From the NCBI GenBank assembly GCA_965197585.1, contig OZ240215.1, positions 2,336,001 through 2,400,000 of the forward strand: DNA of 64,000 bases. Direction: 5' to 3'. The notes below the pieces were generated by a model. It had not been told where the DNA came from and did not search any database. It worked only from the letters and a program-made list of their open reading frames with translations. Below are positions 13,985 through 63,821 of this stretch, one piece after another. Position numbers and translations under genes: made by a program. Source of the stretch: Dehalococcoidia bacterium. Lineage in GTDB: Bacteria > Chloroflexota > Dehalococcoidia > Plut-88900. Each line of letters starts with the position of its first letter. Positions within the stretch are counted from its first letter, which is position 1.

Positions 13985-14069
13985 AAGTTTGTATAAGTGG
14001 TCAGGGGTGAATTGGAAACCTTGAACTATGGAGCGAGAATATTATACCCCCTTGAGGGCGTCCACACAC

Positions 14070-14430
14070 TAAGACCTTTCCATAAACCCCACCCCCTCCC
14101 CCGTCATTCCGGCCCCCGAGCCGGTAGAAGATGCTGCAAGCGGAACGTCCGCCTCGGGAGGATGCGCCTGTGGCGTGCGCCGAGGCGTGAATCCATCCTT
14201 GGGGTGGGGCCGTTCACCCTGTCGTAGATCCGCCGAGGCGGGAGCACCGTCGAAGGGCCGAGCGGGGGGCGGCCCACCACTGCAAATCCGTCGCGTCCCT
14301 AGAAAGCCACCCCACCCCTTTCTCCCCCGTCATTCCTGCGGAGGCAGGTCGCAGATGCGCCAAGGCGTGAACCCATCCCTCCTGAAGGCGCACCTCCCGC
14401 CGAGCCGGAATCCATCCCCTCTCCCGTAGC
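14070..14430. repeat. REP-like palindrome cluster with nested 21-22-nt micro-insertions
   Basis: 14096-14297 aligns with 33865-33975 once inserts at 14125-14189 and 14222-14242 are removed; another insert at 14349-14369. Confidence 0.75.
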
Positions 14431-14504
14431 CCTCACCTCCGCGAAAACTCACCTTCCGCCTCTACCGCATCAAGCCATGTCCAGCCAAATGTGACACGAA
14501 CCCC

Positions 14505-14534
14505 TTGACCAAAGCAAAACACATGTACTATATT
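14505..14534 (+). promoter_or_regulatory. sigma70-type promoter TTGACC-N18-TATATT with SOS-box-like AAAC-ACAT-GTAC
   Basis: Conserved ahead of all three RNA-like loci. Confidence 0.65.
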
Positions 14535-14539
14535 CACTC

Positions 14540-15120
14540 CCGACTGGCCAGTTACCCACCCCAAGGCCAAGGAGGAACCACAACCCAGGGGGAACACCAT
14601 CCCCGGCCCCCGAGGACTCAACGTCCCAGCCCATCCCAAAGAGCGGCGTTAGCCGCTCCCAGGCTCAAGCGAAAGCCGCCATCTCCTCACCTAAAGGCCC
14701 CGGCTCACCCCCCCCCAACCATCAGGCGATGGAAGGTCCATCGACTCTACGCGGCATGTAGGCTTACGAGACCAGCCTACTCGACGCACCACTCACCCGG
14801 CGCGTTCGAGTCAACGCTATGCGCATAGCACGCGAATATACGGAGCCCTCCATTGCAGGGCTAGGCTAGGGGCCTTCGTGCCCCCGGCATACTCCACCGC
14901 CGTTCCCTTCGGAGGTCCCCACCCAGCGGCGGAAGTGAGTAGGCGCTCCCATCCCTCCGAATGGTCGAGCGCAGGCTTGTGGACGAGACACCCCGCCTCT
15001 CTCGCCCGCCTCAGCAAAGACACGTGGGGTAATCGCAGGCTGGTCTCCCGCCCCTGCCCAAGAGTCTCGGACCTTCCATCGCCTACCCCCCAATAACCAA
15101 ACCAAACCCGGAACCCCAAT
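14540..15120 (+). ncRNA. Putative large structured ncRNA, copy 1 (unknown family)
   Basis: Homologous to 34040-34680 and 63016-63643(-); covarying hairpins; perfect 16-bp inverted repeat 14724-14739 / 15069-15084; no conserved ORF. Confidence 0.7.
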
Positions 15121-15179
15121 CGAAGATCCGCCTCAGGAGGACTTAATAACCCCAAGCCCGTAGCGGTGACGTAGGCAAA

Positions 15180-15893
15180 CTACCTGAACTCCCTTGCCCA
15201 CAGTGCCTGCAGGATGGGCACCTCGTCCAGTTTATCCCCCAAGTCTTCCCAAATTATCCCCGTTGGCCTGTGAAATCCTCCTTCACACGCCACCAACTCC
15301 TCCGGCGTTCCTATGTAGTCCAGGGAAATATCGTGAGATGTCATGGGCAGCTCTTCCGACAAAAGCTGCACAGGATGAACGGTAGTTACTATCGGCGTAC
15401 TCTTAGATATCAGGCCTAGGGTCAAGGCAACAGCGTATTCAAGGTCCGAATACCCGCCGCCCTTGCCCAGCCGAGCCCCTTTCCTGTTCACCGCCACCGA
15501 CCCGCAGACAATCAGGTCAATGCGCTGCATTTCATCAGGGTGCACGAGCCTGCCTAGCTGTGCAGCGCCCTTGATGCTGCTGGCCAACCGGTAGTCGCTG
15601 ATACGGGCCGGGTCCAGTTCAACGAAGCACTTCTCCTGCGTGAGCCGGGGCACGGCCATGTAGACGGTCTTACCCTGCTCCAGGGCGAGCCTTCTCAGGG
15701 GCCTCTGAGGCAGATCGGGGTTCGACTTAATCACCCGGGCGTTCTTCCATATCTCCAACTCGGCAAGCTGAAGATGTGCCCGACCCGAGCCCGTGAAGTT
15801 TGGTATCCGACCCACGGCTCCCGGAAACGCGGCGACACCCGCATCCCTCATCGACTGCCACACATCCTTCCGTATTTCGTCCTTGTCTCTCAT
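15180..15893 (-). CDS. 5-formyltetrahydrofolate cyclo-ligase family (MTHFSD-like)
   Basis: GRIPNF, NPDLPQ, GARLGKGGGYSDLEY, HDISLD. Confidence 0.9.
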   Translation of the reverse strand: MRDKDEIRKDVWQSMRDAGVAAFPGAVGRIPNFTGSGRAHLQLAELEIWKNARVIKSNPDLPQRPLRRLALEQGKTVYMAVPRLTQEKCFVELDPARISDYRLASSIKGAAQLGRLVHPDEMQRIDLIVCGSVAVNRKGARLGKGGGYSDLEYAVALTLGLISKSTPIVTTVHPVQLLSEELPMTSHDISLDYIGTPEELVACEGGFHRPTGIIWEDLGDKLDEVPILQALWAREFR

Positions 15894-33449: not shown

Positions 33450-33975
33450 CTCCCTCCCGTCATTCCCGACTCCGATCAGGAATCCACGGGCCGAGAGGGG
33501 CCGCTCGTGCTGAGGCTCTCGAAGTATGAGCGGGGGGGTGTCCGCATAGGAGCAGTACCACGTGATTGTCTCCCCACCTACCCCCCACCCCCCTGTCATC
33601 CCGAGGCCCCGCGAGGGATCTAGGACTTGCCCCATCACACCCCTCTTCACTATTCCCACTCCCATCGATAAGGCCATTCCATAACCCCGACAGACAGGGT
33701 GAGGGGGTGTCTTATACCCTCTCCCTCGACGAGACCTTTGCATAACCCCTGTCGGCGGGGCCGGGGCCGCTCGTGCTGTCGAAGATCCGCCGAGGCGGGA
33801 GGCTCTCGAAGTATGAGCGGGGGGGTGCCCGCATAGGAGCAGTTCAACCTGATTGTCTCCCCCACTCCCCCGTCATTCCTGCCGAGCCGGAATCCATCCT
33901 TGGAGAGGGGCCGCTCACCCTGAGCCCCGTCGAAGGGTCGAGCGGGGGGCGGCCCCGCGTTGTCAATCCGTCGCG
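33450..33975. repeat. Cluster of REP-like palindromes of several families with a micro-insertion at 33779-33799
   Basis: GTCATTCC..GGAATCC, CCGCTCGTGCTGAG..GAGCGG and CCCTCTCCC motifs; 33496-33600 partly duplicated at 33763-33880. Confidence 0.8.
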
Positions 33976-34003
33976 GTTGTCACCCAAAAGTGACACGAAC
34001 CCC

Positions 34004-34033
34004 TTGACCAAAGTAAGACACATGTACTATATT
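34004..34033 (+). promoter_or_regulatory. sigma70-type promoter TTGACC-N18-TATATT with SOS-box-like AGAC-ACAT-GTAC
   Basis: Nearly identical to 14505-14534. Confidence 0.65.
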
Positions 34034-34039
34034 CACCCC

Positions 34040-34680
34040 CGATAGGCCAATCACTCACCCTAAACCCAAAGGAGGAACCAAAACACAGGGGGAAGCCAAT
34101 CCCCGGCCCCCGAGGACTCAACGTCTAAGCCCATCCCAAAGGGCGGCCCACCCGCCGCCCCTCGGCTCAAGCGAAAGCGGAACGTCCGCCTACGGAGGAC
34201 CGCCATCTCCTCATATCAAAGGCCCAGGCTCACCTTCCCCCGCAACCCAGGCGATGGAAGATCCACAGACTATGCTCGGCAGGCCCCGTCCAACGACGCC
34301 CCTGCCGATTCAACGCCCCCCATCATCGGGTGCGTTTACCCCGGCCCATTGCGCGCCGGTTTTCCCGGCAGGTCAACCGACCCCCGGTTTAGCAAGGCCC
34401 TCGTGCCTTGTTTGTCCCGCCGTCCCAGCCATCCGTCTATCCGGCGGATGCACCAGGACGCCGGTTATGAAAGTCCGCCTCAGGCGGCATCTTCCCCGTC
34501 AGCGGTCTGGTCAAGCGCCGCTGCCGGTGGGATCGGCCCCACACAACCCTGACCACAGCCGACAACGTGTGGGGATAATCCAGCCCGGCGCCGACGGCTC
34601 GGCAGCAACCCCCGGCCTGGTTTCTAGTCACCGGACCTTCCATCGCCTGCCCCTCCAGAACAGACATGAACCCACAAATC
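34040..34680 (+). ncRNA. Putative large structured ncRNA, copy 2
   Basis: Homologous to copies 1 and 3; inverted repeat 34248-34264 / 34633-34649; shares CCATTGC and CYTCGT loops with copy 1. Confidence 0.7.
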
Positions 34681-35027
34681 CTTGCTACAACTCAATATCC
34701 CATCGAGGCTGGTTGCCCCACCTCCCCCCATCCACGAAAGGCGCCGCCTACTAGCCCATGCCTTCCCCAAAAACGAATTTCCCTAAAAACAATCAAAGTT
34801 CATGCCTGAGTCCGCACATCAATCAAAAACCCCGGCCCGTCGGCCCAACCGGATCATCAATCTGGAGCGGCCCCTCCGTTGTCCCACCCTATGCCCCAAA
34901 GGAGGCCGCCCGCTAGCCCATAACCCAACCCCTACCCCAACAACTAAATGTACATTCCCTTGCGACTCGCAATCCGGCCATGCTAGAGTAACTTCTCGGT
35001 TGGCGTACATCGCAGGGGGAGGCTGGC

Positions 35028-62842: not shown

Positions 62843-62919
62843 TGGTCGGGGCGCCGGGATTCGAACCCGGGACCTCATCGTCCCGAACGATGCGCGCTAC
62901 CGGACTGCGCCACGCCCCG
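62843..62919 (-). tRNA. tRNA-Pro (anticodon CGG)
   Basis: Cloverleaf with CGGGGCG acceptor stem, TTCGGGA anticodon loop, TTCGAAT T-loop and encoded CCA. Confidence 0.97.
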
Positions 62920-62941
62920 AGCTAAGGGAGGATACTGGGCC

Positions 62942-62970
62942 ATTATACCGGTCTAGTGGCTTCCGTCCAA
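62942..62970 (-). promoter_or_regulatory. tRNA promoter TTGGAC-N17-TATAAT
   Basis: Consensus-like hexamers with 17-nt spacing. Confidence 0.7.
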
Positions 62971-63015
62971 ATGCTGTACTCGTTCGGTAGGTTAGTGACA
63001 CACCGGCCTTTTCTT

Positions 63016-63643
63016 CAGTTGTGGGGTTTGGGTTTGCGTTCTGTCTGTTGGGTTTTGGGTTGACGATGGAAGACGCTTGCTGGATTCGGCTCCCTATTTT
63101 TAGATAATGCGGGCTTGGAGGCGTCCCAGGAACGTGGGGACGGGGCTCCGCCGCCGCCTAGACCTGGAAGTATGGTCGGACGTACGGGTCCGTCATCCGT
63201 CATAGGCTCCAATAAGGGTTGGCTGCGCTGCGAGACATGCAGGAAGGGGAAAGTCCAGGGTCAGTTCCCCTCGCAGGAGTACGGGGTATCCAGTTCGCCG
63301 CCTGTATCCAGGAGCCGGGAGTGGCGGACAGTCCAGTTTTATTTGAGGAAGCGGACGGAGAGCCGAGCGGTCCTCGGCTACGGGCTGCCCCGTTCCGCTC
63401 CATAGGACAAGGTTGCTCCGTGAGGAGACTTTTATGTACGGTCCAGGGCGTCTTCCATCGCCTTGTGGTCAGGGAAGGGGGCACGGGACCCGGTGGGGAT
63501 GAGGAGATGGCGGCGTTCGCTTGTGCCGTGGGGCGGCGTGTGGGCCGTCCTTTGGGATGGGCTTGGACGTTGAGTCCTCGGGTGGGCCAGGTGGGCTTCC
63601 CTAGTTTTTGGTTCCTCCTTAAGGTGGGTATCGGGTCTAGACT
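63016..63643 (-). ncRNA. Putative large structured ncRNA, copy 3
   Basis: Same 5' domain motifs; inverted repeat 63448-63462 / 63062-63076 with compensatory changes. Confidence 0.68.
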
Positions 63644-63649
63644 GGCTCA

Positions 63650-63678
63650 ATAATAGAACACATGTCTTATAATGTCAA
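63650..63678 (-). promoter_or_regulatory. Promoter TTGACA-N17-TATTAT with SOS-box-like AGAC-ATGT-GTTC
   Basis: Positionally equivalent to the promoters of copies 1 and 2. Confidence 0.7.
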
Positions 63679-63821
63679 GAGGGTTATGTCACCCCTCTAT
63701 GTGAACGGGATCAAATGCTTCTGCCCCCAGCTTGAGTAAAGCACATGCCACAGTATCCGCACTATCAACTACATGTCTCCTCTTCCACGGCACAGGGGAT
63801 GGGTTAAAATACCCCACTGAA

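Follow-up and report, generated by a model that had tools for sequence, protein, structure and literature searches.

A large structured non-coding RNA family in one Dehalococcoidia genus, probably carried by a non-autonomous DNA transposon with an IS481-like parent

Three loci in a 64,000-nt stretch of the genome of a Dehalococcoidia bacterium (GCA_965197585.1, contig OZ240215.1, positions 2,336,001-2,400,000; hereafter the window, whose own numbering is used for bare positions) carry a promoter followed by a large structured non-coding RNA gene. These loci are very probably copies of a non-autonomous DDE transposon, 0.70-0.87 kb long and specific to its genus, that bears the promoter and the RNA, an identification to which a probability of roughly four in five is given, for the identity of the element and not for the function of the RNA. 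They had been noticed by a model working from the letters and their open reading frames (ORFs) without database searches (the sequence-only reading), which proposed a large structured RNA family with its own promoter outside known families, possibly an RNA-based mobile unit. The lack of an Rfam match agrees with the former proposal; of the latter, mobility stood, but movement is at the DNA level, as the inverted repeats at the ends, the 5-bp duplications and an exact empty site show. New here are the element ends, the duplications, the target rule, the empty site, a domain swap at one locus and the parent insertion sequence (IS). In what follows, G000 is the genome under study (3.43 Mb), G001-G008 are the eight other species of the genus, and L numbers denote individual DNA stretches.

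The ends of the element are sharply defined. In copies with an intact left side, similarity begins abruptly at TGATCCCGTTCACATAGAGGGGTGACA, and the right end, GTGTCACTAAYCTACCGAACGAGTACA, is found in 25 copies and nowhere else in the genome (25/25). Read inwards, both ends fit TGNNCNCGTTCN{8,11}GTGACA in inverted orientation, and matches to this pattern are element ends only, numbering 23 in G000, 23 in G002, 19 in G005, 7 in G001, 4 in G003, 2 in G008, 1 in G006 and 0 in both G004 and G007, while the reversed pattern, used as a control, gave 0 in G000 and 0-1 over the genus genomes. The insertions are accompanied by a target-site duplication: across the 11 two-ended copies, 42 of 55 flank positions (5 nt each side) are identical, and the match reaches at least 4/5 in 8 of the 11, as against an average of 1.45/5 for non-cognate pairs. 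Directly to the right of the duplication stands TTG in 7/11 copies, usually as the start of a full -35 hexamer with a -10 element 17 nt further on. Moreover, the right repeat is kept in 25 of the 57 copies of the genome, followed by 5 nt, a -35-like hexamer and often the -10 of the downstream gene. The terminal-repeat pairs of G000 (11 of 739-872 bp, and one with a nested IS) each flank a full RNA gene, and this genome yielded no shortened, two-ended derivative that lacks the RNA. There is no transposase inside the unit; where an rve gene does occur, in a single copy, it is part of a separate IS of 1,311 bp that is nested in the copy and has repeats of its own.

Comparison between species shows the element both present and absent at the same sites. 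At copy 3, a locus recognised in the sequence-only reading although the unit with its terminal inverted repeats proved wider than the bounds drawn there (Table 1), the sister species G001 has the empty site ...GGAG GCATT TGGACGG..TATAAT..tRNA with a single GCATT, and the same site is filled in G000 and G005 as GCATT, element, GCATT TGGACGG; G004 and G007 are likewise empty, and G002 is filled. The insertion in G005 bears a different inner domain, which indicates that inner domains were exchanged between copies after insertion. The locus of copy 1 is empty in G001, G004, G007 and G008 (4/5 relatives) and holds an element of inner-domain class B (see below) in G005, and the element of copy 2 is found in G002. 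Besides copy 3, at least two elements lie directly upstream of transfer RNA (tRNA) gene promoters (L093 in G007; G000:C1:1531400-1531520).

To judge from its sequence, the element descends from an IS481-like IS. Its 26-nt right end was found, without a mismatch, in 23 metagenome stretches whose source organisms have a lower G+C content (41-52%), and the RNA domain is present in none of them (0/23). In nineteen of the 23, whose inner flank aligns with that of L210, the 26-nt sequence is the end of a transposase-coding IS, the inner flanks of the others (L195, L196, L202, L204) being different. The L210 IS spans positions 1220-2282 of that stretch (~1.06 kb) and has a 340-aa ORF whose stop codon lies inside the repeat; this ORF matches the IS481 model with 187.1 bits over profile positions 2-283 of 284, the NCBIfam curated cut-off being 224. 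The opposite end of this IS, TGTAGTAGTTCAGATAGATAGGTGACAC, resembles the left repeat of the RNA element, and the outer flanks of the metagenome insertions show, by hand count, N5 followed by a TTG-initial hexamer in 11/23 stretches, with full TTGAC in 6. Because an RNA-less parent obeys the same target rule, this rule is a property of the IS group, and guidance of insertion by the RNA is largely excluded. Within the genus, the cognate transposase is found in 2/9 genomes, one of the two copies being broken: G005 has a 1,069-bp IS copy with TGATCTCGTTCAGAAAGATAGGTGACAC on the left, GTGTCACTAATCTACCGGACGAGTACG on the right, a GTGGA duplication, an adjoining TTGCGC and a broken transposase frame, and G007 has one 331-aa ORF with 57% identity to the metagenome IS transposase. 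In addition, the ~35 nt that precede the right repeat of the RNA element align with the G005 copy at the 3' end of its transposase frame. The shared end and this relic of the transposase imply that a cassette of promoter and RNA took the place of the transposase gene and kept its orientation.

Two further insertion sequences were rejected as partner or parent. The 402-aa rve gene beside copy B_660750, a candidate autonomous partner, belongs to the separate 1,311-bp IS, which has its own ~60-bp repeats and ends unlike those of the RNA element (11/32, not significant); a relative in G034, 50% identical, is an ordinary IS of 1,327 bp that has no RNA. The 1,311-bp IS (L123:140-1450 = G000:C1:659339-660649; L140-L150) carries GGTTACC boxes in its repeats and lies, in 12/12 copies (G000 1, G005 10, G001 1), in the 5 bp between the GTGACA box and the TTGAC of this promoter type, with a 5-bp duplication. 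Nine of the 12 are inside RNA elements, and the IS acts like a parasite on the element's promoter. A 1,056-bp IS481-like IS was rejected as parent, as its protein is just 30% identical over 103 aa to that of the true parent and it is undetected in G004, G006 and G007. Its ends resemble the right end of the element (20/32, reached by 0/5000 shuffles), and it is present in ~21 copies in this genome (one of them L151, G000:C1:111380-112435) with a 320-aa transposase (184 bits) and an ATTCC duplication in a hairpin like that of repetitive extragenic palindromes (REP).

The three window loci have a common architecture. Each has a GTGACA box, a gap of 8 nt, a TTGAC -35 hexamer and a TAnnnT -10, then a conserved stretch that opens with AAGGAGGAAC, and then the complementary arms AGGCGATGGAAG.. 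/ ..CTTCCATCGCC, which enclose 320-370 nt of divergent sequence and are followed by a C/A-rich tail. The parts named in the sequence-only reading, namely the box and the sigma70-type promoter, the arms of a long-range helix around a variable core and the tail, were recovered at 3/3 loci; its count of three copies holds for the window, but the 3.43-Mb chromosome has 57, as defined by two invariant motifs together, with one additional copy whose core is deleted. BLAST of the 5' domain against the genome gave 41 matches. Across the 57 copies, a -35-like TTGAY hexamer occupies the aligned column in all (57/57), the motifs listed for the 5' domain in that reading are invariant or nearly so, and the helix arms lie 313-515 nt apart in 54, a recurrence that goes beyond chance. 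As had also been claimed, no ORF is conserved: none of at least 60 aa retains frame and position across the copies.

Seven classes of inner domain, namely A (12 copies), B (10), C (7), D (6), E (6), F (5) and G (4), account for 54 copies together with four singletons. Sub-modules are common to the class pairs A-D, F-G, B-E and C-G, and the classes are 85-99% identical between species. Part of the length variation is due to small hairpin repeats inserted into the RNA gene, such as 34178-34199 in copy 2. The first ~25 nt of the predicted transcript contain, at a fixed place, a palindrome of 8-12 nt in 38/57 copies, as compared with 6% of shuffles (for example window 14552-14563 in copy 1 and 63644-63635 in copy 3); these leader palindromes have at least three different sequences (GTTCGAAC, GGTCTAGACC, ACTGGCCAGT) and could be a protein site on DNA or a site for RNA-RNA pairing.

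A large RNA structure is supported by covariation and by G.U pairs of the sense strand. Minimum-energy folds of seven copies from seven classes all contain the long-range helix and a stacked 5' domain. In this domain the sequence that follows AAGGAGG and the one that precedes the 5' arm form helices P1-P3 with each other, and these occur in two complementary types: CAGGGAAG..CAC..GRCCC with GGGUC..GUG..CUUCCCUG, and GGGGGAA..AGCC..GGCC with GGCC..GGCU..CUUCCCCC. The types are concordant in 48/55 copies; matched types form duplexes of -23.6 and -26.0 kcal/mol, mixed ones of -16.4 and -21.3, and shuffles of -12.5. Among the covarying stems of the sequence-only reading, the pair GGGG/CCCC versus CTAGG/CCTGG is better read as the 5' strand of P1, a long-range helix (xGGGAAG with CUUCCCy). 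P4 (GAGGA with UCCUC) and the loop sequences are invariant, the latter across all 57 copies.

Covariation was assessed in two alignments. In a plain MAFFT alignment of the 57 copies, 90.6% of cells are paired, compared with 34-56% for slid partners, and 8/25 pairs show double changes versus 4.1 in shuffles; RNAalifold on this alignment found invariant long-range pairs only. In an alignment of 53 distinct sequences from nine species, which was fitted to the structure model and hence leans towards it, 93.7% of cells are paired (42-61% for slid partners) and 12/24 pairs show double changes, a number that 0/500 shuffles reach. For the inner domain of class B, RNAalifold on 23 distinct copies from six genomes predicted 108 pairs at -137.9 kcal/mol, with many one-sided changes from G-C to G-U. 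At least seven G.U pairs are fixed in 23/23 of these sequences, and since they would be A.C mismatches on the opposite strand, they point to selection on the sense RNA.

The family is confined to its genus among the genomes searched. With a covariance model of the 5' domain, all eight other species of the genus were matched (8/8), each with from 23 to at least 45 matches, G004 having at least 45 and G007 38, and no match was obtained in the three other genera of the family (0/3) or in 49 further genomes of the class (0/49; 52 in all). Rfam 15 gave no match for the family, the only hit at gathering score in the window being a neighbouring tRNA; copy 1, searched at E<=10, had two chance-level 14-bit matches only, and the models for group I/II introns, RNase P, tmRNA, signal recognition particle RNA, GOLLD, ROOL, OLE, raiA and T-box were unmatched in the window. 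The 6S RNA model RF00013 had no match in G000 at E<=0.01, with limited sensitivity, as it detects 6S in just 5/14 control genomes. A reverse transcriptase- or nuclease-associated RNA, as suggested in the sequence-only reading, found no backing, because reverse transcriptase (PF00078) is present in 3/9 genus genomes and gave 0 matches in G000, and TnpB (PF07282) is above cut-off in 1/9, with none in G000; the Ro60 co-occurrence raised there likewise failed (TROVE/Ro60, PF05731, 0/9 genus genomes). Literature searches, with supplements outside reach, found no description of the family, and the passages checked in preprint 10.64898/2026.10.21.760802 have nothing on it, the Chloroflexota cluster described there being an unrelated period-8 array.

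As for expression, contigs from three metatranscriptome runs and one probable RNA run, belonging to at least three studies, lie on 14567-15090, and several of these contigs extend into the C/A-rich tails of related copies. Bins 14384-14527 and 15104-15247 have no contig cover in the four runs, and contig depth is higher on the element than on the neighbouring gene, neither of which is usable as evidence with contigs; run shares are small for RNA runs and are uninformative on habitat. No intrinsic terminator is visible 3' of the tail, and the C/A-rich, G-poor composition of the tail suggests a putative Rho loading site.

Taken as a history, a ~1.06-kb IS481-like IS would have lost its transposase gene, the place of which would have been taken by a sigma70-type promoter with a non-coding RNA gene of 0.55-0.75 kb, oriented alike. 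An IS481-like transposase acting in trans would presumably recognise the imperfect terminal repeats TG..C.CGTTC..GTGACA, and insertion would duplicate 5 bp directly upstream of a TTGAC-like -35 hexamer, so that transcription of the RNA gene is directed at the promoter of the host. Once inserted, copies would swap inner RNA domains by recombination and many would lose their outer repeats; copies 1 and 2 may have arrived, or been reshaped, by recombination. The RNA would consist of a constant 175-nt 5' domain with helices P1-P4 and invariant loops, an invariant 12-bp core helix (15-23 bp in total) that closes a class-specific multi-hairpin domain, and an unpaired C/A-rich tail.

With regard to function, the reading tentatively put forward, at well short of even odds, is that the RNA is a trans-acting scaffold kept by host selection, in which a common partner would be contacted through the constant domain and specificity conferred by the exchangeable one. 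RNA genes with a -35 hexamer persist in four distant species (TTGAC in 11/11 copies inspected, including G004 and G007), and two of these four species have no terminal-repeat pattern hits; both facts favour such selection, as do the invariant loops and the high identity of the inner classes across species. Several points weigh against this account of element and RNA. Copies 1 and 2 are without recognisable outer repeats. In G000, a search with the metagenome IS protein gave 0 matches to an intact cognate transposase at E<=1e-10, which leaves mobility there today conjectural. In class B, a double change is seen at 1/108 predicted pairs, and the structure of the inner domain therefore rests mostly on energy and G.U pairs. 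The RNA-run contigs show presence alone, giving no strand, ends or level, and DNA is possible in such libraries. Finally, the scaffold role and Rho loading are both inferred, the latter from composition only.

Distinctly unlikely, though to be taken seriously, is that the RNA serves the transposon itself by regulating or assisting a transposase supplied in trans, by protecting the element, or by making its loss hard. Such a service would explain why the RNA is kept in every repeat-bounded copy of G000, without RNA-less short derivatives, and the fixed leader palindromes of 38/57 copies would fit it as well, GTTCGAAC being similar to the CGTTC box of the repeats. It is opposed by the parent IS, which moves and picks the same target without the RNA, by the RNA genes that persist with their promoters in species without terminal-repeat pattern hits, and by the rarity of the cognate transposase in the genus (2/9 genomes, one of two copies broken).

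Hardly more credible, and if anything slightly less so, is a cis-acting mobile promoter or insulator, which would act only through transcription near host promoters; the RNA would have no function in trans, and its fold would merely stabilise the transcript or end transcription. The arrangement of right repeat, 5 nt and -35-like hexamer in 25/57 copies, often with the -10 of the downstream gene, is what such a device would show; moreover, three copies precede tRNA genes, an intrinsic terminator is not visible past the tail, and the next ORF of at least 200 aa is co-oriented in 37/57, in a crude and noisy count. The invariant loops, covarying helices and stable inner classes (85-99% across species) nevertheless exceed what a promoter or terminator needs, and copies 1 and 2 face convergent genes or none. 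Orientation of the downstream gene as called from raw ORFs was discarded, because it is noisy and labels copy 3 'convergent' despite its position before a tRNA. A replication-strand bias was discarded too, since the cumulative GC skew has no clear turning points, which makes the count of 21/57 meaningless.

A more specific proposal, which is unlikely and a good deal less probable than the scaffold role as such, is that the RNA is abundant and trans-acting, its family having been built by a promoter-targeting transposon and kept by the host, and that its 5' domain docks onto a core cellular machine. Candidate machines would be the RNA polymerase holoenzyme at promoters or, given the invariant 5' AAGGAGG, the ribosome; the palindromic leaders would let molecules pair with each other, and the swappable inner domains would give them differing specificities. 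If true, this would amount to a modular RNA toolkit spread by a jumping gene.

That the RNA guides or tethers the transposition machinery to promoters, in the manner of OMEGA, bridge-RNA or CRISPR-associated transposons, is largely refuted. The insertions exactly 5 bp upstream of -35-like hexamers and the combination of a constant with a variable domain would suit a guide, but the RNA-less parent keeps the N5-TTGAC rule in G005 as well as in other organisms, an element can change its inner domain while staying at its locus, and the hexamer is the sole common feature of the targets, for which a variable guide is needless. Decayed protein-coding genes or slowly eroding neutral passenger DNA, for which the chance long ORFs of this G+C-rich DNA might speak, are equally improbable in view of indels that are not multiples of three, the lack of an ORF common in frame and position, and the promoter, loops and pairings preserved in nine species. 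An invertible segment was rejected as well, as minus-strand matches among the 54 inner domains are only 12 hairpin pieces of 19-30 nt.

Transposase-less units and cassettes with passengers that are moved in trans are familiar as miniature inverted-repeat transposable elements (MITEs) and mobile insertion cassettes. The present element resembles them in having the terminal inverted repeats of a parent IS, a target-site duplication, no transposase, many copies, and presence or absence between relatives; unlike MITEs, it carries as passenger a promoter-driven structured RNA gene of 0.55-0.75 kb, is much larger than is typical, and has a visibly constrained interior with exchangeable classes. With the IS481 family it shares a right end that is identical (26/26 nt) to that of an IS whose best match is to the IS481 model, a 5-bp duplication, and ends that begin with TG and finish with CA, but it encodes no protein, and the transposases of the parent group stay at 187 bits against the curated 224; literature searches found nothing on a strict 5-bp-before-TTGAC preference for the IS481 family. 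The Correia elements of Neisseria are promoter-bearing mobile intergenic repeats, which likewise bring promoters and RNA hairpins next to genes; unlike the present element, they measure ~0.1-0.15 kb and are without a large conserved RNA fold.

Structured RNAs within multi-copy mobile elements are also known as HEARO/IscB RNAs, TnpB omega-RNAs and IS110 bridge RNAs, from which the family differs in that there is no Rfam HEARO match and no TnpB or IscB association, the RNA replaces the transposase, and it is not needed for target choice. In size (~600-800 nt), in many conserved helices and loops, in lacking known biochemistry and in the location of some copies next to tRNA genes, it is similar to GOLLD, ROOL, OLE and raiA; the differences are the absence of an Rfam match, the 40-60 copies per genome, the DDE transposon that bears it, and its confinement to one genus among searched genomes.

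An insertion sequence that traded its transposase for an RNA gene and multiplied to about 40-60 copies per genome throughout a genus would exemplify a way of building RNA gene families that is well known from eukaryotes, as with elements like the short interspersed nuclear elements, and hardly documented for bacteria. In size and constraint the RNA equals the 'ornate' bacterial RNAs, whose functions have long been puzzling, and it offers dozens of natural variants with exchangeable domains and exact insertion histories. In addition, the target rule of the parent IS, 5 bp before a -35 hexamer, is relevant to how promoters evolve and, as a principle of targeting, in its own right. On the practical side, the family fragments assemblies and can mislead the annotation of Dehalococcoidia-type genomes.

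The features of the three window loci are collected in Table 1. The two arms of copy 2 pair with a single A.C mismatch.

Table 1. Parts of the three RNA loci in the window, in window positions.
Feature	Position	Strand	Details
Copy 1, left end and promoter	14491-14534	+	GTGACA 14491-14496; -35 TTGACC 14505-14510; -10 region 14527-14534
Copy 1, left terminal repeat			GTGACA box is its inner part; outer part absent
Copy 1, conserved 5' domain	14569-14739	+	AAGGAGG 14569-14575; helices P1-P4; hairpin H2; 5' arm
Copy 1, 5' arm of long-range helix	14724-14739	+	AGGCGATGGAAGGTCC
Copy 1, inner domain	14740-15068	+	class G (4 copies in genome)
Copy 1, 3' end	15069-15149	+	3' arm; C/A-rich tail from 15085; mini-hairpin CCGCCTCAGGAGG; end CTTAATAA
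Copy 1, 3' arm	15069-15084	+	GGACCTTCCATCGCCT
Copy 1, right terminal repeat			none present
Copy 2, promoter	33990-34033	+	GTGACA 33990-33995; -35 TTGACC 34004-34009; -10 TATATT 34028-34033
Copy 2, 5' domain	34069-34264	+	optional 22-nt hairpin insert 34178-34199; 5' arm 34249-34264
Copy 2, inner domain	34265-34632	+	class C (7 copies in genome)
Copy 2, 3' end	34633-34698	+	3' arm 34633-34648; C/A-rich tail to CTCAATAT; no right terminal repeat
Copy 3, whole unit with terminal inverted repeats	62975-63713	-	
Copy 3, left GCATT	63714-63718	-	5-bp target-site duplication
Copy 3, left terminal inverted repeat	63687-63713	-	TGATCCCGTTCACATAGAGGGGTGACA
Copy 3, promoter	63650-63678	-	-35 TTGACA 63678-63673; 17-nt spacer; -10 TATTAT 63655-63650
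Copy 3, 5' domain	63448-63620	-	AAGGAGG 63620-63614 to 5' arm 63463-63448
Copy 3, inner domain	63077-63447	-	class B (10 copies in genome; 7/9 genus genomes)
Copy 3, 3' arm and C/A-rich tail	63002-63076	-	3' arm 63076-63062; last ~35 nt are relic of transposase frame 3' end
Copy 3, right terminal inverted repeat	62975-63001	-	GTGTCACTAACCTACCGAACGAGTACA
Copy 3, right GCATT	62970-62974	-	5-bp target-site duplication
Copy 3, target, outside element	62846-62970	-	tRNA promoter -35 TTGGAC 62970-62965, -10 TATAAT 62947-62942; tRNA gene 62919-62846

Upstream of copies 1 and 2, REP-like clusters of nested hairpins (GTCATTCC..GGAATCC, with smaller hairpins in the loops) fill the intergenic DNA at window 14000-14480 and 33840-33985; these clusters are missing from the short intergenic region of G004, G007 and G008.

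Related sequences occur elsewhere. A second non-coding family of five copies (G000:C1:62860, 1590859 and 2280200 on the + strand, 3062928 and 3386770 on the - strand; also L145) has the same promoter and GTGACA box, a different 5' domain (GGAGTCCCATGAGTCGCA .. CCGAGCGGTATGG) and the arm ATGGAAGGTYCC. At L153 (G000:C1:1340900-1341800, -), the same promoter and a short C/A-rich remnant are followed by tandem, near-identical 60-nt units (GGATGCCTGCGGCAATGCGCCGCGG...), an array that is not CRISPR-like because it has no variable spacers. L152 (G000:C1:3404961-3405040) has a left terminal repeat standing alone and joined at CACCCCC|TTGCGA to the promoter of groES-groEL, after which comes the inverted repeat TTAGCACTC..GAGTGCTAA, presumably an operator of the CIRCE type; this locus resembles what a deletion from the element's own -35 to that of the target would leave. 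In L184:533-2531 (-), a remnant of the element that consists of the promoter alone precedes ORFs of 132 and 463 aa; the longer of the two weakly matches the terminase large subunit in PHROG (E 7e-6) and has no match in Pfam. Lastly, ~25 copies have upstream modules (for example G000:C1:851900-852100 and 1530400-1530600), consisting of two modules with perfect palindromes of 18-20 bp and T-rich DNA after them; the palindromes differ in sequence between copies with complementarity kept (AGAGGCCCACGTGCGTGC.. versus AGAGGGAGACGTTGGCGC..), and the modules look like terminators.

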